Assembly (NCBI GenBank): GCA_030390025.1
Contig: CM059432.1
Location: 55,988,001 to 56,052,000 of the forward strand
Direction of reading: 5' to 3'
DNA: 64,000 nucleotides
Origin: Squalus acanthias
Taxonomy: Eukaryota
Shown: positions 2,982-60,905 of the stretch, piece by piece
Layout of the letters: each line of letters begins with the position of its first letter
How positions within the stretch are numbered: position 1 is the stretch's first letter
Position numbers and translations under genes: made by a program
The notes under the pieces: generated by a model
Told to the model about the DNA's origin: nothing
The model's database searches: none
What the model saw: only the letters and a program-made list of their open reading frames with translations

Positions 2982-3456
2982 GGGGGAAAAATTGGGTCAT
3001 GCCCCCTTTGGGGCGCTAACTTCGCCGGGGCGCTACTTTTAGCGTCCCGAAAAAGTTAGCCCCCCATGCCCGAAATTCCCTGGTAGCACCCCAAGAGGGA
3101 GGCGGGGTGCTACTGGAAGCGCCCTGCCTCCCTCTTGGGGCGCTGCGAGTGAATATCACAGAGCTATGTCGCGCCGCGGTACTGCAGGCCTTCCTCCCCT
3201 TATTAAAGGGGAGAGGCCTAGCGCAGCGCGACCCGGGGCCCAGCTGGGCCACCAGGGATCGGAGTGCCGGCAAAGAGCCTGGCACTCGAGAAGTGCCGGG
3301 CTCACAGAGCGCAGCCGGCACCCCGCGGGGGGACTGCACAGAAGGCCGGGGACAGCAACGGGGGCAGGTGCTGGCAGGCAGCCAGCAACAAAAATGGCCG
3401 CCCGGCACCTCCCCTTTAATTTGTGCCGCCCCAGCCACAGGTAGGCCCCCCTGCCC
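2982..3456 (+). mobile_element. GC-rich Harbinger-like MITE, truncated copy of the 40365-40988 element
   Basis: Starts GGGGGAAAAATTGGGTCATGCCCCC and closely matches 40365-40740; right end missing. Confidence 0.75.
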
Positions 3457-4074
3457 AAAACATTGCTATATTATTTTTATAAAAAGGAAAAAAAATTCCG
3501 ATGCTAGATGTACACTGCATCTGAAAAGAGAGCAGATTGGTTAACATTCCAAGCAAAAACGTTTCATCCAAGGCTCTTAACAGAGTTTCAGTAACTGAAA
3601 TGTTGATGTATATTTTTGCTTTTCTGATGCTGCAGTGTATGCCCATCATTTTTTTAAAAATCTTTGTAATCCATTTTCACTTGGCTTTTAACTAGAGCTA
3701 AACTCAGCATCTCGGTCCAGGTCACACACTACCTTTGGCCAAGAGGGCAGACAACTTGCACCCAGGCCTCTGCCAATGCAAACCCTCAAAAGATAGTCAG
3801 GAAGGATGTGCGAGTAACTTGGGATGATTTGCCTTCTTCCTGTGGGAATCATCAAACCTTCAGTCAGTTCCTGTCTCACTTGCTGTGCGTAGATTGGCTG
3901 TCATTTTTACCCGTATGACAGTGATTGCACTTCAAAAATTAAATTCATGAATGTGAAGCTCTTTTGGGCATCCTGATAGATGTGATGAGGCACTTTATAA
4001 ATGCAGTTAATTTATTTCCTTCTTAAATTGAGATAATTTAAATGAAATGATGATCAATGTTCTTGATTACACAG

Positions 4075-4259
4075 GTAAAGAATCTGGCACTGCAGCTGGA
4101 GCAAGAGATGAATAAACGGGCAATGACAAAGAGTGAGCTAAAGGCACAGTCATTGGAAGCTGACAACCTTAAAGGTTCAGAGAAGCAGTTGAAACAAGAG
4201 ATCAATTCATTGCTGGAATCCAAGCGGTCGCTAGAATTCCAGCTGGCGCAACTCTCAAA
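4075..4259 (+). CDS. ROCK1: ROCK1 exon (~20): VKNLALQLEQEMNKR...LEFQLAQLS(K)
   Basis: acag|GTAAAG acceptor, AA|gtattt donor; phase 0 in, phase 2 out; homologous to VKNLTLQLEQESNKR. Confidence 0.95.
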
Positions 4260-4876
4260 GTATTTATTTCTTCTTGGGATATTAACATTGTGTAAAATCT
4301 ATTTTAAATGTGCTGTAATGGGAAACTCTATATTAATCTTAGAAAAATGCTTAGTATAAAATTATTAGGAAAAGTTATTTTGTAGTGTATGCTAAATTGC
4401 GGATTTCAAGTGCTATTCAGTGATAATTAACCAGAAATTGGACTAATATTGCATGTGATTTCAAAAATTACTGATAAAATTTTAAGATTAAAATGTTTAA
4501 TAATGTGATGGGACAGCATGTTGAAGTACACTTGTAGTGTGGTAGTTATGCACCAAAGATTCACATTACAATGAGCTAATTGTCTCATTGCATTAAAAGA
4601 AAGACAGACTTAGGGATTCGTAGAGTGGAGGTCAGGTGCTTTACAGGGAGTAAAAATCTGAAGTTGGGTCTTGCACACCTCAGATTGGGAATGTTCCAGG
4701 AAACATTGGCGAAGAAAAAAATAATGCCACTTGTAAAAATACATTACCAAAACTCTATCGTGCACTAACATAGATTTTGTTACAGATCATTTTAAATACT
4801 AAGGTATAGGAAAAAATATTATCTCCGTAATAAACACTTTAAACCACATCATTTTCAGATAAACCTTTTACCTTTC

Positions 4877-5060
4877 ATAGAATAATACAGCGCAGAAGGA
4901 GGCCATTGGGCGCATTGAGTCTGCGCCGGCTCTTTCGAAGAGCAATCCAGTTAGTCCCACTCCCCCGTTCTATCCCCATATCCCTGCAATATTTTCTCCA
5001 AGTATTTATCCAATTACCTTTTGAAGGCTACTATTGAATCTGTATCCACCACCCTATCAT
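4877..5060 (-). mobile_element. CR1 3' end fragment
   Basis: catagaataatacagcgcagaaggaggccatt, the CR1 3' tail shared with other copies in the window. Confidence 0.75.
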
Positions 5061-6159
5061 GACCTCAGTTGCAAATTCTATCCAACATTAAAACTTGTTA
5101 TATTAATTTTAATTACTTGTGACTATGTTTCATCTTCCATTAATGGCCATTCTTAATTTCTCATCTTGTTTTTAAAAAAAAATGCAGAATAGCTTTATTA
5201 TGTATTGTCTCCTAAAAGTGTGTGGTCAAAAGTTGTCACAGTAGTTCCCAACCTATGTATCATTTCCATGATAGGATACATGAGACAGTTCCCAGTTGAA
5301 TCATTCTTCCAATTTTTCCTTACTCTCTGCCATAAAATGCCTGTCCTGTTTGTGGTGCTACCTACAGCCCCTCCCAGCCCAAGTGATCTGTCATGGATCA
5401 ATCGTTTGATTCCTTTGTTAAATTTTATGGTGAGGAGCATTAGGAAGCAGAGAGTTGCAGGTTTAAGTCCTTTCTTTGCGAAGTTCCCAATCTCAGCTGC
5501 ACTGCTCTGGGAAGTGGTGGGCATTACCCTGGCAAAGGAAAATCAGATAGGGTTTCCCTCAGAGCCACTGTTGTCTGCCTCATGGTTGCTGGCTAAGACC
5601 TGCATTGGCAATGGCCTAGGGAACAAGACCAATCACCCCTGCTCTCAGCCGCAATGGGGTATGTCCAACTTAGGGACCAATAAGAAGAGACAGAAGATAA
5701 GAAAGATATCTGTCTTTTAGAAAACATCTGGTGAATTTAAACAGGTTAATTAAAGCTGTAGTGGCAGCAATTTCATCATAATGTGTTACTTGCTAATGTG
5801 TAGGTAGGTCAAAAGAAGTCTATGCTGCAAACTATTCACTATTCCCAGTAGTGCATATTTTTGGGAATATATAGATTGTGTACTAATGTTGTTGAACCTC
5901 TTGCTTATGTGGCATCATACCAGTTATTAGCTGATGTCGAGTCAGTTTTTCTCTCCCTGTAGCTATGAGTACAGATTAAAATGAAAGTAAATTGAAACAG
6001 CTGCCTCTAAATATAGACTATACACTTTTTTTTGCGCACGTAACATATATTATAAAATGTAGTGACGAGGTAGTCGGTCAGGGAAAATGCATCCTCTATC
6101 CATGAAGCAATGGACATTTTAAGCAACTGTTATTTTAAATAATTAATCCCAGGAACTAG

Positions 6160-6523
6160 AAACAGAAAATGCTGGAAATACTCAGCAGGTCAGGCAGCAT
6201 CTGTAGAGAGAGAAACAGAGTTAACGTTTCAGGTCGATGACCTTTCGTCAGAACTGGAAAAAGTTAGAGATGTAACAGATTTTAAGCAAGTTCCACTCTA
6301 TCACAAACCTTCCCTTTTGTTCTTTCCTCCCCTCCCCCCCCTTTCCCTGCCTCTGCACTTGCTTAAAATCTGTTACATCTCTAACTTTTTCCAGTTCTGA
6401 CGAAAGGTCATCGGCCTGAAACGTTAACTCTTCTGTCCACAAATGCTGCCTGACCTGCTGAGTATTTCCAGCATTTTCTGTTTTTATTTCAGATTTGCAG
6501 CATCTGCGGTATTTTGCTTTTGT
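6160..6523 (+). mobile_element. Fold-back Penelope-type non-autonomous element (family A) with hammerhead motifs
   Basis: Inverted arms ~6160-6291 and ~6357-6483 plus a 40-nt unique tail; CTGACGA...GAAACGTT core in both arms. Confidence 0.75.
6393..6429 (+). ncRNA. Minimal type-I hammerhead ribozyme motif
   Basis: AGTT-CTGACGA-A-AGGTC(atc)GGCCT-GAAA-CG-TT-AACT: core, helix II, palindromic ACGT helix III and helix I AGTT/AACT. Confidence 0.7.
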
Positions 6524-7124
6524 ATTAGTTACTTTCCTCCTTGGGTGGGAGTGGAAAGTCGGGAGAGGAGGGAGATAATTCAAATCTCATTATAGCGGAG
6601 GTGGCTACAAGATGACGTGTCTGGCAATGGAGGCTTGAAACCAAGTCTGTGGCAGCCTCGGTAATCCGATAGCTGAATCGGGCAAATCCGCAGTACTCCA
6701 GAGTCCTGTTGATTGACCGGCCATCTCGGCTCATATCTGGTACCTGGAGGGGTAGACCTGTCACTGGGATTCTTCCCACTTACCTCAAATATCAATGCAA
6801 GCTAATGTCACAATTGCTAAAGTGATCCTAGCTGGATAATCAGTGTGAGGCAGCTCTGGCAAGCTGGTTTTACCTGGCTAAACTCCACGTGTAACCCTAT
6901 GCTCTGTTAACCTGCACTTGACTTGGGTTAATGGAATGTGTCCCTACGGCGAGAGAGTTTGAACTGCATATTGGACAAACAGAAACCCTATAGGTGGATG
7001 TGGTTTTATTAGTAGCTTGATTTAGAAAGGCAATGATGGGTTTCCATGCATGTTAGACACCTGATTGAAAAGAAAAAAGACCAGATTTAAGTCATTTATT
7101 CTAGTGCCAGAATTTGTTATACTA

Positions 7125-9200
7125 ATAGAGTCATAGAGTTATTACAGCACAGAAGGAGGCCATTCGGCCCATCGAGCCCATGCCAGCTCTCTGTAGAGCA
7201 ATCCAGTCAGTCCCATTCCCCTGCTCTATCCCCGTAGCCCTGCAAGTTTATTTCCTTCAAGGGCCTATCCAGTTTCCTTTTGAAATCATTGATCGTCTCC
7301 ACTTCCACCGCCCTCGTCAGCAGCGAGTTCCAGGTCATTACTACTCGCTGTGTAAAAAAGTTCTTCCTCACATCCCCCCGTATCTCTTGCCCAAGACCTT
7401 AAATCTGTGTCCCCTAGTCCTTGTACCATCAGCTAATAGGAACAGCCTTTCTCTGTCTACCTTATCCAAACCTGTCATAATCTTGTACACCTCTATTAAA
7501 TCACCCCTCAACCTCCTTTGCTCCAAGGAGAACAACCCCAGCTTCTCCAACCTTACCTTGTAGCTAAAATCCCTCATGCCTGGAACCATTCTGGTAAATC
7601 TCCTCTGCACCCTCTCAAGGACCTTCACAACCTTCCTAAAGTGTGGTGACCAGAACTGGACGCAATACTCTAGTTGTGGCCTAACCAGAGCTTTATAAAG
7701 GTTCAGCATAACTCCCCTGCTTTTGTACTCAATACCTCTATTTATGAAGCCCAAGATCCCATATGCTTTGCTAACTACTCTCTCAATATGTCCTGCCACC
7801 TTCAAAGATCTATGCACATGAACCCCCAGGTCCCTCTGTCCCTGCACACTCTTTAGAACTGTGCCATTAAGTGTATATTGCTTCTCCCGATCCCTTCTGC
7901 CAAAATGCATCACCTCACACTTCTCTGTATTAAATTCCATCTGCTAGCCTATCTATGTCCTGTTGCAGTCGATTGGTATCATCTTCACTGTTTGCCACAC
8001 CTCCAAGTTTGGTATCATTGGCAAATTTTGAAATTTTACACTCTATTCCAATATCCAAGTCATATATATCAAAAAAAGCCATGGTCCCAGCACTGACCCT
8101 TGGGGAACACCACTGTCTACCATCCTCCAGTCTGAAAAACAACCATTTACCACGACTCGCTGTTTTCTGTCCTTAAGCCAATTTCTTAGCCAAGCTGTCA
8201 CTGACCCTCCTATTCCATGAGCCTCAATTTTGTTAACCAGCCTTTTATGTGGTACTTTGTCAAACGCTTTCTTAAAATCCATATAGACAACATCCACTGC
8301 ATTCCCTTCATCAACCTTCTTTGTTACTTCATCAAAAAATTCAGTTAGATTAGTTAAACATGATCTGCCTTTTAGAAATCCGTGCTGGCTCTCCTTAATT
8401 AACTTAAACCTCTCCAAGTGCCTGTTAATTTTTTCCCTGATTATTGTTTCTAAAACTTTACACACCACTGATGTTAAACTGACCAGCCTGCAGTTACTAA
8501 GATTGTCCTTGCACCCTTTCTTGAACAAGGGTGTCACATTTGCCACTCTGGCACCTCCCCCCGTATCTAGGGAAGATTGGAAGATTATGGCAAGCCTTTC
8601 TGCTTTCTCCACCCCCACTTCCCTTAGCAACCTGGGATGCAAGCCATCTGGACCAGGCGACGTATCCACTCTAAGCATATCCAGCCTTTCCAGTACATCC
8701 TGCCGATCAATTTTCACCCCATCCATTACCTCTACCATCTCCGCTTCTATTTTGTCAGCATCCTCTTCTTTAGTAAACACCGATAAAAAGTACTCATTAA
8801 GTATTCTAGCCTTGCCCTCCACCTCCAAGCATATATCACCTTCTTTGTCCCTAATAGGCCCCCCCCCCCCACCCCTGCTCTTACTACCCGCTTACTATTT
8901 ATATGCCGGTAGAAGATTTTTGGGTTCCCTTTTATGTTAACTGCCATTCTATTCTCATTCTCTCTTTGCCAGTCTTATTTTCCTCTTCACTTCCCCTCTC
9001 AACTTATTGTATTTGGCCTGGTTCTCACTTGAAGAATTCACCTGACATGAATCATACACCTTTTTTTTCCATCATATTCTCTATCTCCCTCGTCATCCAA
9101 GGAGCCCTGGTTTTGGTTCCCCTACCTTTCCCTCTTGTTGGAATGTACCTAGCCTGTACCTGAAACATCTCCTCCTTAAAGATCACCCATTGTTCCGTTA
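7125..9200 (-). mobile_element. CR1 LINE, 5'-truncated ORF2 (RT) with frameshifts
   Basis: ORFs 8043-8828 and 7368-7940: [60 protein letters not shown]1 3' tail. Confidence 0.95.
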
Positions 9201-9320
9201 GAATTAGGAGTTGTTGTGTGTCTAATAACATTGTTGCTAGATATGTTTGTCACATAATGTAGCTTTAATTTAAAGTTCGCTACAGCACAGTCTGATAATG
9301 CCCCTTTTCGATTTCTTAAG

Positions 9321-12339: not shown

Positions 12340-12945
12340 GCTTTGCCAAGAGGTTGCACTCGTGCCTCTGTCAGGCGGTCATGGGTTCATGTCTCACTGC
12401 AGGACTTGAGCACATCACCTAGGGTGATACACCAGTGTAGTACAGCGGGAGTACAGCATTGTCAGATATGCCTTCTTTCAGATGAGGTGTTAAACCGAAG
12501 CCCTGTATGCCTGCTCAGGTGGACATAAAAAACAATCCCATGGCACTATTCGAAGAAAATTGAGAGGTCGCACAACACCAGGTTATAGTCCAACAGTTTT
12601 ATTTGAAATCACAAGCTTTCGGAGCTATCGATCGCCCCTTCCTCAGGTCCGAAAGCTTGTGATTTCAAATAAAACTGTTGGACTATAACCTGGTGTTGTG
12701 CGACCTCTCAGTTTTGTCCACCCCAGTCCAACACCGGCATCTCCGCATCATGACCACTATTCGAAGAAGAGCAGGGAAGTTCTCCCAGTGTCCTGACTAA
12801 CATTTATCCTTCAACCAAAACACAATATCTAGTTAGTTAAATTGGCTGCCACGTTTGCCTATATAACAACAGTGACTATACTTCAAAAGTAATTGGGTGT
12901 GAAATGCTTTGGGATGTCCTGAGGGCATGAAACGCGCTGTATAAG
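12340..12945 (+). mobile_element. Deu-domain SINE (SacSINE1/AmnSINE1-like), interrupted by a palindromic element
   Basis: gatgaggtgttaaaccgaagccctg...ggtggacataaaa...cccatggcactattcgaagaagagcaggg core; L2-like tail. Confidence 0.75.
12558..12754 (+). mobile_element. Fold-back Penelope-type element (family B) with 14-bp TSD
   Basis: TSD cactattcgaagaa at 12544-12557 and 12755-12768; inverted arms; tail ttttgtccaccccagtccaacaccggcatctcc. Confidence 0.8.
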
Positions 12946-16549: not shown

Positions 16550-17560
16550 TTTGGTGTGCCACAAGGCTTTTTCCTTGTTCGCCTCCAATAATTAATCTAC
16601 ATACTACCACTTTATGATATCATCCACAAGCATTGCGCCAGCTTCCACATGTATATTGATGACGCTCACATCTGCCTTTCTTCATCACTCCATTGCTGTT
16701 GCAATCCTATACAACTGCTGTTTGGCATAAAGTCTTGGTTGAGTCATAACTCCCTATAGTTCAATATTGACAATACTGAGGATATCTAATTCTGATGAAA
16801 GGTCTTCGACCTGAAACGTTAACTTTGTTTCTCTCTCCACAGATGCTGCCTGACTTGCTGAGTATTTCCAGCATTTTCTGTTTTTATTTCAGATTTGCAG
16901 CATCTGCAGTATTTTGCTTTTGTACTGAGTATATCTATTGGCTCTTGCCAATACCTATGTACCACTGATGCTGACTGCTCGCTCGGGCTGAGACCTGTGG
17001 TGTGCAAACCTGGCATTCTCTTTGACCATGAACTGACCTTTCTACCCCAAAATCATCGTCTTCCATCTCTGGAACTTTGTCTGCATTATATCCTCAGCCC
17101 ATTCCAACTGCTGCTGAAACCCTTATCCACACCTTTAACAGGTCAAGGATTGTTTGGTCCAATGCTCTACCTTCAGCTTTCACACACTTCATTAATTGAG
17201 AAGTTTGCAGCCTGTGCCCTCTCCTGTCCAAAGTCATGCACCCAATCACCCATCTTCAGAAAACTCCATTAGCTCCTTTTGCCCCAGACGATTTCCAGAT
17301 CTTTATCCTCACTTTCAAGTCCAGCTGTGATCTCACCCCATCCTACTTGAGGAATCTTCTTTGTGTCTGGGCCCATATCCTCCATTCTTCTGACGCTGGT
17401 TTACTGCTTGCTCTCCACCCCTCTGCTCCACCACTGGAGTCCAGTCTTTCAGCCAGTACAGCCTAAACCACTTTGCCTTGCTATGTCTTTCCCTGATTTC
17501 AAAAGTCTCTTGTGCCTTCCCCCCCATCAAGTTCCTTCACTCACTGTTCAGTTTCCTCCT
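16550..17560 (+). mobile_element. Degraded L2 RT/3' region, interrupted at 16789-16922
   Basis: GVPQG and FHMYIDDAHI remnants, pyrimidine-rich L2 body. Confidence 0.65.
16789..16922 (+). mobile_element. Single-arm family A Penelope-type element with hammerhead core and 15-bp TSD
   Basis: TSD tactgag(g/t)atatcta at 16774-16788 and 16923-16937; CTGATGA-A-AGGTC(ttc)GACCT-GAAACGTT. Confidence 0.8.
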
Positions 17561-35190: not shown

Positions 35191-35314
35191 TGATCTCCAT
35201 TCAACCAGCTGAATCTACTGAGGTCCAAAATAGGGACCCCAATGTAAACAATTAAAGATCAGGACATGGGAGTAGTTCTCATGCCTCAACCATTTCATTT
35301 CAGCTGATGATTGC

Positions 35315-35416
35315 AAATAAAAACAGAAAATGCTGGAAATACTCAGTAGGTCAGGCAGCATCTGTGGAGAGAGAAACAGAGTTAACGTTTGAGGTCGATG
35401 ACCCTTCGTCAGAACT
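35315..35416 (-). mobile_element. Family A Penelope-type arm with mutated hammerhead core
   Basis: Matches 6160-6255; on the minus strand GAAA is changed to CAAA. Confidence 0.75.
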
Positions 35417-36461
35417 CGCAATCCTGCACATGATTGTACATGATCGCAATCCTGGTTTGTCATTCCGGGAATCAGTTCAGTCTCTTAGTAAAACTCCATC
35501 TTACTGATGCAGTCAGTTGCTGTGTCCTTGCTAATAATAGAAAAAGCAGCAAACTTCGGAGGAGCAAGGACTGGGCCACAGTGCTGGCATCTTAGAGTGA
35601 AGAAACTACAGTTAACAACAGATAATACAGAAAGCAAAGAAAATGCTAAAAGAGGGGGAAAGGAAAAAAATGATGAAAGCGAAACACAAAGCTGCTGAGG
35701 AGGACAGGAAAAATAACTAGTAAGATTTGTTTCAACAGCACTGCAGCCTGGAGAATAGGCAGGAAAGAGAGTAGATGACATTGGGGAGGAATAGAGACAC
35801 TTTTGAGGGAGACTAAAGGAGAGGGAGAGTGACCCTCTTGGGAACCCAATTGAGGCGGGGCAGAGGAAGAGACCCTGGTTGCATGTCAAGGAGAAACCGA
35901 GATCAACCTTGGAGGAGAATAGAAAAAGAAAAACCCTGTCTTGCAGGGGACGAGAATAGAAAGAGCGTTTAACTCCATTGTGGGGAGGAGGGTGAAGAAA
36001 GAGGATCTGTTGAGGCAAATGACACTGTTGAAGAGGATGGGGAGGGAATAGTGAGAAGCTCTGTGGCAGGGTGAGCGGGAGAGAAACTTTGTTACATGGC
36101 TCATCTCTGGCCTGCCTGAGGGCAGATGGGACAGTTGCTGTTGGGCGAAGCAGACCCACACTGTGTCCTATGACTCACCATGAACAATGCCACAGGAAAT
36201 CCACAGATATTTACAAGAAAAACTTACATACCTATTTGGACTTTGGCTAATGTTTCCCACAATTGCAGGTATTGTACAGAGCAATCCCAAGTGTGTAGGT
36301 TTGCGGGCTGGTTTACCTTGCATCTGTAGTGTTCCAGAATGCTTCCGTTCTTGACAAAATTATGTATGTAGTTTTGTAGGTTGTAACTTTGTAGTTTGAG
36401 CCATTTATTTTAATTATTGTATGTTTTATTTGAGAAAAGTGTGAATTGTGTTATCTTTCAG

Positions 36462-39539: not shown

Positions 39540-41760
39540 CAGCAACAATTTACATTATATAACGTAGCTCCTTTTGTAGATGACAGTCCTGGGGCGCTTT
39601 ACATGGTGGATGGTAGGGCGGAGGGTCCTGAGGAAGTGAGGAAGGAAATTGGAGGAGAAGATATGGAAATAAAAGGCATAGTTGAAGAGCTAGGTACCGA
39701 AGAGGCTTTTGAAGACAGAGTGATAACAAGCCACAACATGATTTTGGAAGACAGTTTCAGAGGGGCAAGTAGACCAGCCTCTGATAATGAAGTAGAAGGG
39801 GTGGGGAATGAGATACAATCCAGGGACAGATGATGGAGAACATTTCTCGGATAAGGTTAAGCAAGACCATGGAGAGATTTGAAGATGAGGACAAGCAGCT
39901 TGAAACTCACTTGCTGGGATGCAGGGAGTCAGCGAGTAGAAAGAATTACATAGAATTTACAGCACAGAAACAGGCCATTTGGCCCAACTGGTTTGTGACG
40001 GTGTTTATGCTCCACACGAGTCTCCTCCCACCATACTTCATCTTACCCTATCAGCATATTCTTCTATTTCTTTCTCCCTCGTGTACTTATCTAGCTTCCT
40101 CTTAAATGCATCTACATTATTGAGTGATGGGTGTACGGAACAACATGTGGCAGAGGACTAATAGTGCAGAGTTCTGGATTGGCTGAACTTTGTAAAAGGT
40201 AAAGGGTGGAGATGGCAGGGCCAATAAGGAAAGCACTGAGGAGTTGCTCCATAAGGTAGGTGACAAGACATGGATTAGGGTTTTGCCAGTGATCGAATAA
40301 GATAGGAGAGTAAGCAGGTATTTTGGAAGTGGAAGAAGGTGATCTTGACAATGGACAAGATGTAGGGGGCAAAATTGGGTCATGCCCCCTTTGGGGCGCT
40401 ACTTTTAGCGCCCCGAAAAAGTTAGCACCCCTGTGCCCGAAATTCACTGGTAGCACCCCAAAAGGGAGGCGGGGCGCTACTGGAAGTGCCCCGCCTCCCT
40501 CTTGGGCGCTGCGAGTGAATATCGCAGCGCAACGTGCCACAGTACTGCAGGCCTTCCCCTTATTAGAGGGGAGGGGCCTAGCGCAGCTCAACCCGGGGCC
40601 CAGCTGGGCCACCAGGGATCGGAGTGCCGGCAGGTGCTAGCAACGGGGGCAGGTGCTAGCAGGTGGCCAGCAACAAAAATGGCCACCCGGCCCCTCCTTT
40701 AATTTGCGCTGCCCCGGCCGCACGTACGCCCCCCTGACCCTGTCGGACATGGCGTCCGGCAGTAAGTCAGGGGGCGCTACCGAAGATCGCAAGCGGGGTG
40801 CTGTGCACGGCAATGACGTCATCACCAGAGGCGCAGTGGGGCGCTAACGGTTACCACCACCGCTATCCTCCCGCTGAATTTCGCGGGAGGCGTTAGCGGC
40901 GCCGTGCCCAGGCGCTAGTTGCTTTGCGCCCTGTTAGCACCCTCTTAGGGCACTAACGGGAGGCGCAAATCAACCGAATTTTTCCCCCGTAGAGTTTAAA
41001 GCTAGGCCTGGATTTAACAACACTGAGGTTGCACATCACTGAGCGGACAAACAAGGGTCAGTGCAGTTGAAGCCAGAGGCATATGGTTGGTGGCGCGAGC
41101 CAACTAGGATTGCTTCAGTCTTTTCAATATTGGCCTGTAGGAAATTTCAGTTTATCTAGTTCTTGATGTCAGGTAAGCAGTCATAAGTTGTAGCAACAGT
41201 TGTGGATTTGATACAACACTGATAGAATTGAGTGTTGTTGGCGACATGTCAAAGCTCACAGCCGTTCTTGCAGATGTTGTGGAGTAGCATGTGGATGACA
41301 AAAAGGACACAATCAAGGATGGAGCCATGGGGCATATTGAGGTGACTGTGCAAACACAGGAGGAGAAGTAGTTGAAGAGGTGACTTTGTTGGGAAAGGTT
41401 GGCGAGAAGCCTGAGAGTGCAGTGCCCATGGAGGAAGAAGCAATGGGAAACAATGGAATGCTCAACAGTATAGGAGTTGGCAAAGACATTCAGGAGGCCA
41501 AGGTCAACAATGAACCATGGCCACAGTTACACAGGATGTCATTGGTGACTGACCAGGGAAATCTCAGTGCTTTGCGCTAGTCTGAAACCAGATTTGAACC
41601 AGAAGTGATGAGAGAAGTGAGCATTTTGTTCAGTAGCAACAACATATTAAAGGACTTCGGAGACGAGGGCAGCAGTTTGAGAATATAGGTAGTTTGGAAA
41701 AGGGTGAAAGATTGACAATGCCGGAAAATATGGTATCAGTAAGAGGGATTTGGTGGCCTA
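39540..41760 (-). mobile_element. Old L2 remnant with nested CR1 tail (~39948-40110) and MITE
   Basis: Purine-rich L2 antisense pattern; GSILD..LF.IHML remnant. Confidence 0.55.
40365..40988. mobile_element. Full-length GC-rich Harbinger-like MITE
   Basis: TIRs GGGGGCAAAATT / AATTTTTCCCCC; perfect 3-bp TSD gta; repeated GGCGCTA motifs. Confidence 0.8.
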
Positions 41761-49748: not shown

Positions 49749-52700
49749 TAGAATCATAGAATGATACAGCACAGAAGGAGGCCATTCTGCCTATCGTGCC
49801 AGTGGCGGCTCTTTGAAACAGCTATCCAATTATTCCCACTCCCTTGTTCATTCACCATAGCCATGCAAATTTTTGCTTTTCAAGTATTTATCTAGTTCCC
49901 TTTTGAAAGTTATTGAATCTGCTTCCACCACCCAAGTAACATTCGTGCCACACAAGTGCCAGGCAATGACCATCTCCAATAAGAGCGTCTAACCACCTCC
50001 CCTTGACGTTCAACTGCTGATTACCACCTACCGCCCTCCCTCGGCTGATTGGAAGAAGCACAGAGTAGCAAGGGCACAGAATGTACGCTGGATGGGGGAC
50101 TTCAATGTCCATCACCAAGAGTGGCTCGGTAGCACCACTACTGACCGAGCTGGCCGAGTCCTGAAGGACATAACTGCCAGTCTGGGCCTGCGACAGGTGC
50201 TGAGAGAACCAACACGAAAAACCTACTTGACCTCGTCCTCACCAATCTACCTGTCGCAAATGTATCTGTCCATGACCATATTGATAGCAGTGACCACCGC
50301 ACAGTCATTGTGGAGATGAAGTCCTGTCTTCACACGCGTGTTGTGTGGCACTACCACCGTGCTAAATAGGATAGATTCAGAACAGATCTAGCAGCTCAAA
50401 ACTAGGCATCCATGAGGCGCTGTGGGCCATCAGCAGCAGCAGAATTGTATTCCACCACAATCTGGAACCTCATGACCCGCATATCCCTCACTCTACCACC
50501 ATTACCATCAAGCCAGGGGAACAACCCTGGTTCAATAAGAAGTGGAGAAGAGCAGGCGTAGCTAAAAATGAGGTGCCAACCTGGGGAAGCTGCAACACAG
50601 GACTACATGCATGCTAAAAAGCGGAAGCAGCATGCTATAAACAGGGCTAAGCGAGCCCACAATCAACGGATCAGATCAAAGCTCTGCAGTCCTGCCACAT
50701 CCAGTCATGAATGGTGGTGGACCATTAAACAACTAACTGGAGGAGGAGGCTCCATGAATATCCCCATCCTCAATGATGGTGAAGCCCAGTACATGAGAAC
50801 AAAAGACAAGGCTGAAGCGTTTCCAACCATCTTCAGCCAGAAGTGCTGAGTGGATGATCCACTTCGGCCTACTCCTGAGGTCCCCACCATCACAGAAGCC
50901 AGTCTTCAGCCAATTTGATTCACTCCACGTGATATCAAGAAACGGCTGAGCGCACCATATATGGGCCCCGACAACATCCCGGCTATCGTGCTGAAGACTT
51001 GTGCTCCAGAACTAGCTACGCCTCTAGCCAAGCTGTTCCAGTACAGTTACAACACTGGCATCTATCGACAATGTGGAAAACTGCCCAGGTATGTCCTGTC
51101 CACAAAAAGCAGGACAAATCCAACCCGACCAATTACCGCCCCAACAGTCTACTCTCAATCATCAGCAAAGTGATGGAAGGCGTCATCGACAGTGCTATCA
51201 AACGGCACTTACCAATAACCTGCTCACTGATGCCCAGTTTGAGTTCCGCCAAGACCACTCTGCTCCCGACCTCATTATAGCCTTGGTCCAAACATGGACA
51301 AAGGAGCTGAATTCCAGAGGTGAGGTGAGAGTGACTGCCCTTGACATCAAGGCAGCATTTGACCGAGTGTGGCATCAAGGAGCCCTAGTAAAAGTGAAGT
51401 CAATGGGAATCGGGGGAAAATGCTCCACTGGCTGGAGTCATACCTAGCACAAAGGAAGATGGTTGTGGTGGTTGAAGGTCAATCATCACAGCCCCAGGCC
51501 ATCGCTGCAGAAGTTCCTCAGTGCAGTGTCCTAGGCCCAACCATCTTCAGTTACTTCATCAATGACCTTCCCTCCAACATAAAGTCAGAAATGGGGATGT
51601 TCGCTGATGACTGCACAGTGTTCAGTGCCATTCACAACTCCTCAGAAAATGAAGCAGTCCATGCCCGCATGCAACAAGACTTGGATGACGTTCAGGCTTG
51701 GGCTGATAAGTGGCAGGTAACATTCGCGCCACAGAAGTCCCAGACAATGACTATCTCCAACAAGCGAGAGTCTAACCACCTCCCCTTGACATTCAATGGT
51801 ATTACCATCGCCGAATCCCCCACCATCGACATCCTGGGGGTCACCATTGACCAGAAACTTAACTGGACCAGCCACATAAATACTGTAGGACCAAGAGCAG
51901 GTCAGAGGCTAGGTATTCTGTGGCAAGTGTTTCACCTCCTGACTTCCCAAAGCCTTTCCACCATCTACAAGGCACAAGTAAGGAGTGTGATGGAATACTC
52001 TCCACTTCCCTGGATGAGTGCAGCCCTCCTCCAGTTAAGTATTGTTATTCTAGATTGCTCCTTGTCCTTCTCCATAATTAATCTAAACCTTACGATACTA
52101 TGACATCTACCACCTAAAAGGACAAGGGCAGCAGGCGCATGGGAACACCACCACCTCCAAGTCCCCCCTCCAAGTCACACACCATCCTGACTTGGAAATA
52201 TATTCTCATTCCTTCATCATCGCTGGGCTAAAATCCTGGAATTCCCAACCTAACAGCACTGTGGGCGTACCTTCACCACACAGACTGCAGTGGTTCAAGA
52301 AGGCGGCTCACCACCACCTTCTCGAGGGCAATGAGGAATGGGCAATAAATGTTGGCTTTGCCAGTGACTCCCACATCCCATGAATGAATTTTTTTTTAAA
52401 CTTTCAGGCCGTGCATTGCAGATCATCATAACTCGCTGCATTTTTTTTTCCTCATGTCGCCTCTTGTTCTTATGCAACTACCTTAAATCTGTGTCCTCTG
52501 GTTACTCACCCTTCAGCCACTGGAAACAGTTTCTTCTTATTTGCTTTATCAAAATCCTTCAAGATTTTGAACACCTCTATCTCCCCTTAACATTCTCTGT
52601 TCTAAGGAGAACAACCCCAGCTTCTCTAGTCTCTCCACGTAACTGAAGTCTTTCATCCCTGGTACCATTCTAGTAAATCTCCTCTGCACCCTCTCTAAGG

Positions 52701-54463: not shown

Positions 54464-56641
54464 TCTTCACACCGAGGACACCCTCCATCATGTTGTGTGG
54501 CACTACCACCGTGCTAAATGGGATAGATTCAGAACAGACCTAGCAGCTCAAGACTGGGCATCCATGAGGTGCTGTGGGCCATCAGCCGCAGCAGAATTGT
54601 ATTCCACCACAATCTGTAATCTCATGGCCCAGCATATCCCTCACTCTACCATTACCATCAAGCCAGGGGACCAACCCTGGTTCAATAAGGAGTGCAGAAG
54701 AGCATGCCAGGAGCAGCACGAGGTGTACCTAAAAATGAGGTGCCAACCTGGGGAAGCTGCAACACATGACTACATGCATGCTAAAAAGTGGAAGCAGCAT
54801 GCTATAGACAGGGCTAAGCGATCCCACAATCAACGGATCAGATCAAAGCTCTGCAGTCCTGCCACATCCACTCGTGAATGGTGGTGGACCATTAAACAAC
54901 TAACGGGAGGAGGAGGCTCCATAAATATCCCCATCCTCAATGATGGTGGAGACCAGCACATGAGTACAAAAGACAAGGCTGAAGCGTTTGCAACCATCTT
55001 CAGCCTGAAGTGCCGAGTGGATGATCCACTCAGCCTACTCCTGAGGTCCCCACCATCACAGAAGCCAGTCTTCGGCCAATTCGATTCACTCCACGTGATA
55101 TCAAGAAACGGCTGAGCGCACTGGATATAGCAAAGGCTATCGTGCTGAAGACTTGTGCTCCAGAATGAGCCGCGCCTCTAGCCAAGCTGTTCCAGTACAG
55201 CTACAACACTGGCGTCTATCGACAATGTGGAAAACTGCCCAGGTATGTCCTGTCCACAAAAAGCAGGACAAATCCAACCCGACCAATTACCGCCCCATCA
55301 GTCTACTCTCAATCATCAGCAAAGTGATGGAATGTGTCATCGACAGTGCTATCAAGCGGCACTTACTCACCAATAACCTGCTCACTGATGCCCAGTTTTG
55401 GTTCCGCCAAGACCACTCGGCTCCCGACCTCATTACAGCCTTGGTCCAAACATCGACAAAGGAGCTGAATTCCAGAGGTGAGGTGAGAGTGACTGCCCTT
55501 GACATCAAGGCAGTATTTGACCAAGTGTGGCATCAAGGAGCCCTAATAAAACTGAAGTCAATGGAAATCGGGGGGAAAACGCTCCACTGGCTGGAGTCAT
55601 ACCTAGCACAAAGGAAGATGGTTGTGGTGGTTGAAGGTCAATCATCATAGCCCCAGGACATCGCTGCAGGAGTTCCTCAGGGCGGTGTCCTAGGCCCAAC
55701 CATCTTCAGCTGCTTCATCAATGACCTTCACTCCAACATAAAGTCAGAAATGGGGATGTTCGCTGATGACTGCAGAGTGTTCAGCGCCATTCACAACTCC
55801 TCAGATAATGAAGCAGTCCATGCCCGCATGCAACAAGACCTGGACGACGTTCAGGCTTGGGCTGATAAGTGGCAGGTAACATTCGCACCACAGAAATGCC
55901 AGGCAATGACTATCTCCAACAAGCGAGAGTCTAACCACCTTCCCTTGACATTCAACGGTATTACCATCGCCGAATCCCCCACCATCAACATCCTGGGGGT
56001 AATCATTGACCAGAAACTTAACTGGACCAGCCACATAAATACTGTGGCAACAAGAGCAGATCAGAGGCTAGGTATTCTGCGGCGAGTGTCTCACCTCCTG
56101 ACTCCCCAAAGCCTTTCCACCATCTACAAGGCACAAGTAAGGAGTGTGATGGAATACTCTCCACTTGCCTGGATGAGTGCAGCTCCAACAACACTCAAGA
56201 AGCTCGACACCATCCAGGACAAAGCAGCTCTCTTGATTGGTACCCCATCCACCACTGGTGTACCGTGGCTGCAGTGTGTACCATCTACAAGATGCACTGA
56301 GGCAACTCACCAAGGCTTCTTCGGCAGCACCTCCCAAAACGGCGACCTCTTCCACCTAGAAAGACAAGGGCAGCAGGCGCATGGGAACACCACCACCTCC
56401 AAGTTCCCCTCCAAGTCGCACACCATCCTGACTTAGAAGTATATCGCCCATCCTTCATCATCGCTGGGTCAAAATCCTGGAACTCCTTACCTAACAGCAC
56501 TGTGGGAGTACCTTCACCACACGGACTGCATTGGTTCAAGAAGGCGGCTCACCACCACCTTCTCAAGGGCAATTAGGGATGGGCAATAAAGGCTGGCCTT
56601 GCCAGCGACGCCCATATCCCATAAAAACGAATTTAAAAAAA
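54464..56641 (+). mobile_element. Same LINE family, copy 2
   Basis: ORFs 54495-56436 near-identical to copy 1; possible 6-bp TSD acattt. Confidence 0.9.
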
Positions 56642-58115: not shown

Positions 58116-59220
58116 TGCTTCCCTTCCTCCCTAACTGCTGAAACTCTGTCTGAAGGACCTCAACCCTTTTCCTACCTACGTCATTAGTTCCGACATGGAC
58201 CATGACTTCTGGCTGATGCCCCCGCAAAATGCTCTTCACCCGTTCAGTGATGTCCCTTCCCCCGGCAACAGGGAGGCAACACACCATGCGAGACTCACGT
58301 TGGAGGTTGCAGAAACTCCTGTCTATCCCCTATGACCACTGCATTTCTACATTTTGCTGTACCCCCCTGTGCAGTCATTTGTCCTACGGTGCCACAGATT
58401 ATTAGGGACAAAGAAGGTGATATATGCTTAGAGGCGCAGGGCAAGGCTAGAATACTCAATGAGTACTCTGTATCAGTGTTTACTAAGGAGGTCATGATGC
58501 GGAGGACTAAGGAGGTGGATGCTGACAAAATATCGGTAGAAGTGGAAAAGGTAGAAGCAATGGAAGGGGTGAAAATTGATTAACAGGATGTACTAGAAAG
58601 ACTGGGTATGCTTAGAGTGGATAAGTCACCTAGCCCAGATGGCTTGCATCCCAGGTTGCTAAGGGAATTGGGGGAGGAGATAACAGAAGGGCTTGCCATA
58701 ATTTTCCAATCTTCCCTAGATGCGGGGGAGGTGCCTGAGGATTGGAAAGTGGCAAATGTGACACCATTGTTCAAGAAAGGGTGTCAGGACATTCCTAGTA
58801 ACTACAGGCCAGTCCGTTTAACATCAGTGGTGGGTAAAGTTTTAGAAACAATAATCAAGGAAAAACTTAACGAGCACTTGGAGAGGTTTAAGCTAATTAA
58901 GGAGAGCCAGCATGGATTTGTTAAAGGCAGATCGTGTTTGACTAATTGATGATGATATCAATCGACTGCAACAGGACATAGAAAGGCTAGCAGAATGGGC
59001 AGACAAGTGGCAGATTGAATTTAATGCAGAGAATTGTGAGGTGATGCATTTTGGCAGAAGGAACAGGGAGAGGCAATATACACTTAATGGCACAGTTTTA
59101 AAGAGTGTTCAGGGGCAGAGGGACCTGGGAGTTAATGTGCATAGGTCCCTGAAGGTGGTGGGACATATTGAGAGAGTGGTTAGCAAAGCATATGGGATCT
59201 TGGGCTTCATAAATAGAGGT

Positions 59221-59561
59221 CATGATGTGGAGATACCGGCGTTGGACTGGGGTGGACAAAAATGAGAAGTCGCACAACACCAGGTTATAGTCCAACAGAT
59301 TTATTTAATTTTACAAGCTTTCGAAGCAGTTCGCTCCTTCGTCAGGTAAGTTAGCAGTGAGAGAATCTCCCAGAATTCACAATTTAAACACAGACAAAAT
59401 TGTAGGGAAAAATGTGAATAGATTTTGTCTGTGTTTAAATTGTGAATTCTGGGAGATTCTCTCACTACTAACTTACCTGACGAAGGAGCGAACTGCTTCG
59501 AAAGCTTGTAAAATTAAATAAATCTGTTGGACTATAACCTGGTGTTGTGCGACTTCTCATT
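59221..59561 (-). mobile_element. Fold-back Penelope-type element (family B) with 15-bp TSD
   Basis: TSD ttcataaatagaggt at 59206-59220 and 59562-59576; ~140-bp near-perfect inverted arms around a ~20-nt loop; tail at the left end. Confidence 0.85.
59473..59511 (+). ncRNA. Minimal type-I hammerhead ribozyme motif (mirror copy on the minus strand at ~59310-59349)
   Basis: TTAC-CTGACGA-A-GGAGC(gaact)GCTTC-GAAA-GC-TT-GTAA. Confidence 0.72.
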
Positions 59562-60905
59562 TTCATAAATAGAGGTATTGAATACAAAAGTAGAGAAGTT
59601 ATGCTGAACCTTTATAAAGCGTTGGTTAGGCTAGACGGGGAAAGCCTGTTCCCACTAGTTGATGGTACAAGGACTAGGGGACATAGATTTAAGGTTTTGG
59701 GCAAGAGATACAGGGGGAAACGTGAGGAAAAACTTTTTTACGCAGCGAGTGCTGATGACCTGGAATTTGCTGCCGACGGAAGTGGTGGAAGCGGAGACAC
59801 TCAATGTTTTCAAGGGGAGACTGGATAGGCACTTGAGGGAAATAAACTTGCAGGGCTACGGGGATAGAGCGGGGGAATGGACTGACTGGATTGCTCTACA
59901 GAGAGCTGGCACGGATTCGATGGGCCGAATGTCCTCCTTCTGTGCCGTTATGACTCTATGTGCCCTAGACTGCATTCCCCATAGTGTCATCACCCTCACC
60001 GGTATTCAGCACTGAAAACCGGTTTGAAAGTACCACACGCCCAGAGGATTCCTTTACTGCCTGCCTCTTCCTACCCTGCCAAATGGTCACCCACTCCTGA
60101 ACTCTCTGTAGCTGCAGGGTGACCACCCACTGGAATGTGCGCTCCAGGAAATTCTCAGCCTCCCATATGCCCTGAATTGACTCCAGCCACTCCTCGAGCT
60201 TAGAAACCCTGAGCTTGAGTTCGAGCAATTGAAGGCGCTTCCTACACACATGGTTACCTAGGACACATGAAGTGTCCTGGAGTTCCCACATGGCACAGAA
60301 ATTACAGTCAATGGGTCTCAACTGTCCAATCATTTTGTTTAAAAGTCTTATCAACTTATTTCTTTATATAGTTTAGTATCTCCTTACTAATTTATTATTT
60401 ATTTATACCAGATTTTTATTTAAAGCAATTTGGATCCCTTTAATATTAGTATGCTCTACTTAATTTTATCCCCTTAGATCTAACTAATTAGTCTGATTAT
60501 TTATATATTTACTGTTGCCCTTGGTTTAAATTACTTAGCATCTCCTTCCCCCTCTGCACTGAATTCCCACTCTCACCAAATTCCCGTCGTCACTCTTTAG
60601 CAGATTCACCCAGCTCTGTGCTCACAGCTCTCCTTGGTCTTCTAGTTAGATTGGCCAGTGCTAATGCTATAGGAAATCATTTTTTATTTGAAGAATAACC
60701 ACTGTTTAAAGATTGATTGATAAATAGAGAGATTAAAACTAAAATTACATTTGAGAAGCATGCAATAAAACTAGTGCTAACAATACTAAAGAAAAATACG
60801 AGGAATATAGAAAGTGTAGTGAGATTTTTAAAAAAACTAATGCAGAACGAGTGGGCAAGTACAGCAAGAACTAAAGGGGAATATGAATAAAGGTTAGCAG
60901 ATAGT

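Follow-up and report, generated by a model that had tools for sequence, protein, structure and literature searches.

A head-to-head pair of truncated, hammerhead-bearing repeat copies in a ROCK1 intron of Squalus acanthias, likely from the 3' end of a Penelope-like element

Minimal type I hammerhead ribozymes (min-HHRs) have been described in the pseudo-LTRs of Penelope-like elements (PLEs), where they number thousands per vertebrate genome and mostly occur singly (Cervera and De la Pena 2014, PMC4209133). According to the same study, their consensus runs CUGANGAH, helix II, GAAAN, a palindrome and NUH, a genome may hold several covarying families of them, and some form opposite-strand pairs 100-700 bp apart. 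An inverted, 5'-truncated copy together with a 30-40 bp tail on one end is standard for PLE insertions (Arkhipova et al. 2013, PMC3846280; Craig et al. 2021, PMC8557442), and the PLE protein of Anolis cleaves and extends both target strands, with two start sites of reverse transcription between which the tail lies (Frangieh et al. 2024, PMC11167929). Further, non-LTR retrozymes have been reported in the one chondrichthyan sampled by Li et al. (2026, bioRxiv 10.64898/2026.07.22.740005). What the hammerhead does in PLEs is described as still unclear (PMC8557442), and its cleavage was dispensable for insertion in vitro (PMC11167929).

Here, we describe a 371-bp head-to-head insertion within a ROCK1 intron of Squalus acanthias, at positions 6153-6523 of a 64,000-nucleotide stretch (hereafter, the window, to which all positions refer). 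It is very probable, in our judgement, that this hairpin consists of two 5'-truncated copies of a high-copy repeat (family A) joined head-to-head, likely representing the 3' end (pseudo-LTR) of a PLE and a single old insertion, and that its hammerhead is likely cargo with no role in ROCK1. Directly seen are the hammerhead motif and both arms, the tail on one side only, the abundance of the repeat, siblings that bear target-site duplications (TSDs), and a second family of the same build (family B).

The family A insertion and its siblings

The host gene was recognized from 14 exon matches to a shark ROCK1 protein, all on the + strand and extending from 730 to 38469; the exon at 4075-4260 shows 97% identity to a shark ROCK1. 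Because the ROCK1 exons are on the + strand, the hammerhead motif at 6393-6429 (+) is sense to ROCK1, in agreement with the first-pass annotation of this DNA, which had called this copy sense to the ROCK1 pre-mRNA. The annotation had also placed the fold-back at 6160-6523 inside a ROCK1 intron, and this holds; the family B pair at ~59 kb lies past the last ROCK1 exon match. In addition, the left edge of the insertion, previously fixed at 6160, had to be replaced by a range, 6153-6160. The layout of the locus is as follows:

4260-9320, + strand: host ROCK1 intron, with GT at 4260 and AG at 9319-9320
6153-6291, - strand: inverted arm of family A, 5'-truncated and without a tail; left edge 6153-6160
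6219-6255, - strand: minimal type I hammerhead motif of family A, antisense to ROCK1; the mirror of the sense motif, with GACCU in helix II
6291-6523, + strand: long family A arm with a tail, truncated at its 5' end (6291); other copies go further upstream
6292-6356, + strand: unpaired hairpin loop of pyrimidine-rich element sequence, itself high-copy
6393-6429, + strand: minimal type I hammerhead motif of family A, sense to ROCK1; predicted cut after 6425
6490-6523, + strand: 34-bp tail, absent from the other arm; in all three DNA runs of related organisms, loose ends fall at 6488-6489 and 6523

The inner parts of the two arms, 6217-6291 and 6357-6431, differ at a single one of 75 positions, and the arms extend outward to 6153 and 6490 with 5 further substitutions and a 5-nt gap; the predicted fold of the whole hairpin has an energy of -228.9 kcal/mol (z -23). 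The difference between the inner 75 bp, with mismatch at 1 site, and the outer part, with 5 substitutions and 1 gap, gives a Fisher p of 0.087, or 0.044 when the gap is counted, and weakly hints at conversion or constraint near the motif. The short (-) arm, read from 6291 to 6153, begins 66 nt deeper in the element than the long arm. In each DNA run of related organisms, 264-266 records have loose ends before 6291, with an agreement of 0.71-0.73; that is, these records have common sequence upstream of 6291, and 6291 is therefore a truncation point.

Four sibling copies in the window were used for comparison:

12558-12754, unstranded: family B fold-back in a ROCK1 intron, with a ~41-bp tail on its shorter (+) arm
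16789-16922, + strand: solo copy of family A lying in a ROCK1 intron in sense orientation, with the tail and an intact core, beginning inside helix I
35315-35416, - strand: solo copy of family A lying in a ROCK1 intron in antisense orientation, without a tail, beginning at the edge of helix I
59221-59561, unstranded: family B fold-back in a LINE remnant, with motifs at 59311-59349 (-) and 59473-59511 (+)

The fold-back at 59221-59561 has arms at 59259-59400 and 59422-59563 (141/142 positions matching), a ~40-bp tail on the minus arm only and a perfect 15-bp TSD (59206-59220 / 59562-59576), and that at 12558-12754 has a perfect 14-bp TSD (12544-12557 / 12755-12768) and carries the hammerhead core only on its longer, tail-less (-) arm. 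The solo copy at 16789-16922 is likewise bounded by a 15-bp TSD with 1 mismatch (16774-16788 / 16923-16937). The TSD scores of these three copies are 15, 14 and 12, whereas none of 300 random flank pairs scored above 9; a TSD is thus present at 3 of the 5 insertions tested. The solo copy at 35315-35416 has no clear TSD, and the 6153-6523 insertion has none above chance with either left edge (score 3, equal to the null median). All three fold-backs have the tail on exactly one arm (34, ~41 and ~40 bp), and the unit occurs in the window only head-to-head or solo, never as a head-to-tail tandem.

Two further observations were made on the copies in the window. At 35301-35450, the solo minus copy has, instead of a TSD, an inverted 6-nt match at its flanks and a short local duplication beside its 5' end. 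At 3515-3660, there is a probable older, decayed head-to-head pair of the family A type that has lost the core; the match of its minus arm was equalled by none of 1000 shuffles and that of its plus arm by 13 of 1000, with an nhmmer E of 0.068.

The region 5900-6900 was also matched against contigs of four public runs of related organisms, three of them DNA-sized and one small. Matching contigs numbered 112,821, 110,869 and 106,640 in the DNA-sized runs and 4,084 in the small one, and the summed depth, which is not a copy number, rose from 8-31 in the left flank to as much as 2e7 over the arm, being several-fold lower upstream of the motif. The 3' loose ends cluster at 6488-6496 and at 6523, which are the two 3' ends found in the window. 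Contigs that match the flanks (92-96% identity) run into the element. On the right side, they enter it by 35 letters in X19 and 47 in X22, but by only 24 in X20. On the left side, they get as far as 6186 in all three of these runs; counted from an edge at 6153 this is 34 letters, and counted from 6160 it is 27, the latter being below the 31-letter threshold of the comparison. No single contig spans the whole insertion in any of the 4 runs. Based on these comparisons, the insertion seems to be common to related organisms whose flanks differ by 4-8%, and it would therefore be older than the split from them. The two arms show 6 mismatches and a 5-nt gap over 6395-6489 vs. 6-7 mismatches between unrelated copies, a divergence in keeping with what old neutral decay would give.

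The same runs revealed two other features around the locus. The best-supported opposite-strand joints at 6201-6237 and 6488-6523 recur at offsets of 33-36 nt, close to both the tail length and the assembly word length, and may represent preferred junctions or an assembly effect. Another moderately repeated sequence lies to the right of the insertion, at 6614-6850, with depth up to 1,393 vs. ~30 in X19.

Hammerhead motifs in two repeat families

In the sense motif of family A (6393-6429), helix I is AGUU/AACU, followed by the core CUGACGA, an unpaired A, helix II AGGUC/GGCCU, GAAA and the palindrome ACGU, with U17 at 6425. The family B motifs at 59473-59511 (+) and 59311-59349 (-) have UUAC/GUAA, GGAGC/GCUUC and the palindrome AGCU instead. 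The helices, core and palindromes that had been claimed for both families were reproduced by our descriptor scan, the strict version of which matched 4 times in the window (2 family A, 2 family B) and not once in 300 dinucleotide shuffles; with helix I waived, there were 6 matches in the window vs. one match in 2 of 300 shuffles.

The core (CUGANGA ... GAAA ... UH) is intact in both 6-kb arms, and position 12 is changed in the 35315 copy. A helix II of 5 bp with an unpaired A between positions 9 and 10.1 is found in all 7 aligned motifs. Helix I has 4 bp in both 6-kb arms and both 59-kb arms and is damaged in the 5'-truncated copies at 16792 and 12646, and in place of helix III there is a palindromic 15.2-16.2 (CG in family A, GC in family B). 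The pair 10.1-11.1 is A-U in both 6-kb arms, G-U at 35412 and G-C in family B. G at 10.1 makes up 21-73% of the matched depth in relatives, where the base that pairs with it is not visible, and thus the A found here is one of two common states. A search of Rfam at E <= 5 matched no hammerhead family, canonical or ultraconserved intronic, and returned 17 other weak matches; its miRNA-family matches, all below gathering scores, reflect only the long hairpins and were rejected.

Two predicted local structures were observed in addition. Core positions 6398-6402 of family A can pair with 6422-6426, forming an inactive rod that is the predicted most stable local fold. A G+C-rich 63-bp hairpin occurs in two copies (3083-3146 and 40450-40512) in another repeat and gives weak mir-3926 matches below the gathering score.

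Families A and B cannot be aligned outside the core, and the view that they are unrelated in sequence stands. Their best blastn match is 9 nt long (E 0.23) and their global alignment score is 69 vs. 59.6 +/- 6.5 for shuffled sequences; with 47 of 500 shuffles scoring as high, a link between A and B by sequence was rejected. The first-pass annotation had also stated that all stems differ while pairing is kept, and took this as covariation. Between the two families, 8 of the 11 pairs do change on both sides; 1 changes on one side only, however, and 2 are identical, and no pair is changed on both sides within family A (4 copies) or within family B (2 distinct motifs). Across 7 motifs, the pair count is 93.5% paired and 8/11 pairs are changed on both sides, which 0-1 of 500 shuffles matched; the number of pair types was reached by 26 of 500 shuffles, and slid controls were 17-51% paired. 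We read these counts as showing how well the motif fits and not as significance, since both structure and rows had been picked from these very sequences, which represent three lineages. That is, the pattern fits one motif, but calling it covariation was an overstatement for two families and one outside record. The broader notion of two parallel ribozyme-retroelement lineages is borne out, in the sense that retroelement ends of two families bear a ribozyme motif of the same RNA architecture.

Regarding the identity of the element, a tblastn search with 31 PLE-type proteins left 30 of them without a match in the 64-kb window, and the match of the remaining one was rejected as LINE reverse transcriptase (RT) remnants. 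No RT or endonuclease ORF was tied to family A or B by this search, and the PLE label therefore rests on the anatomy and the motif. As a separate matter, the window contains two copies of an RT-bearing LINE region (50554-52384 and 54721-56625) that are 88-96% alike and ~4.16 kb apart.

The outside record mentioned above came from a pattern scan, in which the family A pattern was found at 1 locus in metagenome_contigs (L001) and at none in viral_contigs; the family B pattern was found at none in viral_contigs either. In L001, the same core, helix II and palindrome lie ~150 bp behind a GIY-YIG ORF (E 4.9e-5), the longer relatives of which mostly have an RT domain. Positions 112-1148 of this record read as a PLE-type 3' end, with a CxxCxxC linker in the GIY-YIG ORF followed by a core with C17; it represents another family, and its helix I is poorly paired. 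Relaxing the pattern brought up 13 prokaryotic loci (L002-L014), which play no part in our conclusions, and of 3 candidates for the PLE protein P0128 in viral_contigs none was confirmed.

Formation and persistence of the insertion

We infer a two-primer route for the head-to-head arrangement. A GIY-YIG/RT protein would nick both target strands ~14-15 bp apart, and each nick would prime one cDNA on the element RNA. One of these cDNAs, started from the outer site, would become the arm with the tail, and the other, started from an inner site 34-41 nt upstream, the arm without it; both would stop early and be joined head-to-head, leaving a one-sided tail and a TSD. In the parent element, cleavage would occur only as a same-sense dimer formed via the palindrome, or with help from the protein. 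In the ROCK1 pre-mRNA, the antisense arm is transcribed first and is predicted to pair fully with the sense motif, likely as a side effect of the geometry of the insertion.

In the fold-back at 12558-12754, it is the shorter arm that carries the tail, and therefore neither arm is a copy of the other's cDNA. The arms within a young insertion match at 63/63 and 62/63 positions vs. 56/63 between the two family B insertions. Because the arms are near identical within an insertion but differ between insertions, both derive from a single RNA or a single source locus. Alternatively, for this step alone, the inverted arm could have been made by self-priming on the antisense template, as opposed to two target-primed cDNAs. 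Self-priming has been proposed, and favored, for head-to-head PLE junctions (PMC3846280), and near-identical arms made from one template or locus are in line with it as well; however, both-strand extension and the two RT start sites seen in vitro (PMC11167929) account for the TSD and the one-sided tail directly, and no longer palindrome is evident at the family A junction, where the arms overlap by 1 nt at 6291. Provided that the PLE-end identity is correct, self-priming thus keeps a real but minority share of our belief, and the two-primer route is the one that we favor.

Of the 8 arms, three have their first base 2-4 nt ahead of the core, where helix I has its 5' edge: two in family A (16790 and 35416) and one in family B (12648). 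These start points are ~30 nt upstream of the cleavage site, i.e., not at the predicted cut. A binomial calculation (a 4-nt window in 170) gives a p of about 7e-4, with the window chosen post hoc and a small n. It is possible, although we would sooner bet against it, that copying in both families meets a discrete stop, in the template RNA or in the reverse transcriptase, at the 5' border of helix I, so that the ribozyme fold sets where the copy starts; if true, this stop would be a handle on what the hammerheads of PLEs do. The PLE intron of Drosophila virilis has been reported to end at the 5' end of helix I (PMC4209133). At 6381-6394 (+), we observed a branch-point-like CTAAC, a pyrimidine run and a CAG ending just inside helix I of family A, and the solo family A copy at 16790 begins one base past the equivalent of this AG. 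A 3' splice site as the general cause of the 5' boundary was nevertheless rejected: it fits family A, but family B has the CTAAC and no AG there.

The first-pass annotation had further suggested that the sense motif is tolerated in the ROCK1 intron because the antisense arm sequesters it; that is, a sense minimal hammerhead would otherwise cut the pre-mRNA and be purged. The masking itself is predicted to be complete: in the ROCK1 transcript, each base of 6393-6429 is paired to the antisense arm with a predicted probability of at least 0.997, the probabilities of helices I and II in the sense motif are about 0 in the whole hairpin, and the near identity of the inner arms (74/75), which match better than the outer parts, is as sequestration would have it. 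The damaged helix I of the solo sense copy in ROCK1 also speaks for it, and so does the modest depletion from introns reported for tandem retrozymes of Xenopus, although 42-44% of the Xenopus copies are still intronic in those data, which do not separate strands. The attribution of tolerance to masking, on the other hand, was not supported. Masking does not explain persistence, because it follows automatically from a head-to-head insertion in either orientation. In addition, single min-HHRs show no detectable cleavage in vitro and dimers little (PMC4209133), and the Anolis motif was cleaved only with its protein (PMC11167929). When the sense arm is taken alone, helix I is predicted with a probability of 0.03-0.22, the core pairs with itself with a predicted probability of up to 0.73 in a 60-nt context, and no helix III is predicted for the monomer, which would require a second same-sense copy. 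The solo copies in ROCK1 introns are 1 sense and 1 antisense, too few for a test, and the sense one (16789-16922) is a weak counter-example to purging because its helix I has a mismatch, though its core is intact. Accordingly, we consider survival through sequestration improbable. Apart from this assessment, a cut intron can still be spliced, through exon tethering.

The hairpin could also be a mobile unit as a whole, i.e., a MITE-like or fold-back non-autonomous element, or a retrozyme. MITEs and other DNA transposons have fixed terminal inverted repeats, symmetric ends and a short TSD. The long, near-perfect inverted arms would suit such a unit, and some opposite-strand joints recur at the same sites in 5-13 contigs per DNA run. 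In contrast, more than 1,100 further joints were found beyond those listed, the arm starts vary between insertions, the tail is one-sided, the TSDs measure 14-15 bp, and a solo arm has a 15-bp TSD of its own. The one-sided tail, the variable starts and this solo arm led us to reject a MITE or DNA transposon, and the head-to-tail tandem that a retrozyme requires is absent from the window; mobility of the hairpin in any of these forms is, in our opinion, highly unlikely. We give even less credence to exaptation by the host, in which an intronic ribozyme or a double-stranded RNA element would regulate the splicing or level of ROCK1. The apparent retention of the insertion in relatives with a 4-8% flank difference and the great stability of the hairpin are what exaptation would lead one to expect, but any fixed neutral insertion is expected to persist over such a distance, the hairpin is a member of a huge family, its arms have decayed like other copies, and it matches no Rfam hammerhead family. 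Hence, we favor the reading of the hairpin as two truncated PLE ends that came in as a single insertion.

Comparison with described elements

Families A and B are like the min-HHRs of PMC4209133 in being of type I, in the core and the unpaired base before helix II, and in having a 4-bp helix I, a 5-bp helix II, a 2-nt palindrome for helix III and U17; both U17 and the CG and GC palindromes occur in the alignment of that paper. As described there, several families are present in one genome and form an opposite-strand pair, here ~170 bp apart. The copy at 6 kb differs from the usual G10.1-C11.1 in having A10.1-U11.1, a state shown by two A-U rows of the same alignment. Supplement file 2 of that paper has no shark entry, and its file 1 may list further species. 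In the literature, we found no paper that gives these shark families by sequence (repeat databases were outside the scope, and the supplements of Li et al. may hold chondrichthyan families), and nothing on a strand bias of intronic minimal hammerheads.

Like those of the endonuclease-bearing PLEs in PMC3846280 and PMC8557442, the insertions are 5'-truncated, have an inverted copy next to the 5' end and a tail at one end only, and show a TSD in some cases but not in others. They differ from these in that only the terminal 90-230 bp are left, with no ORF, and in TSDs of 14-15 bp vs. 8-10 bp in the examples from rotifers. PAc, the Poseidon element of Anolis carolinensis (PMC11167929), similarly has two 3' ends that bound a tail and a hammerhead in its pseudo-LTR, and both-strand extension as described for it would yield head-to-head arms; this likeness is by description rather than by sequence comparison. 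Like the non-LTR retrozymes of Li et al. (bioRxiv 10.64898/2026.07.22.740005), which are PLE-derived, the shark copies are non-coding and bear a type I hammerhead, but the retrozymes are head-to-tail tandems with a motif per unit, whereas the shark copies are head-to-head pairs or solo stumps. The abundance of the families means that counting alone could address both selection on sense intronic hammerheads and the fixed start point. As it stands, the significance of the locus is small: it belongs to a kind known from the 2013-2024 literature, and it extends the 2014 observation of minimal hammerheads to two repeat families of a shark.
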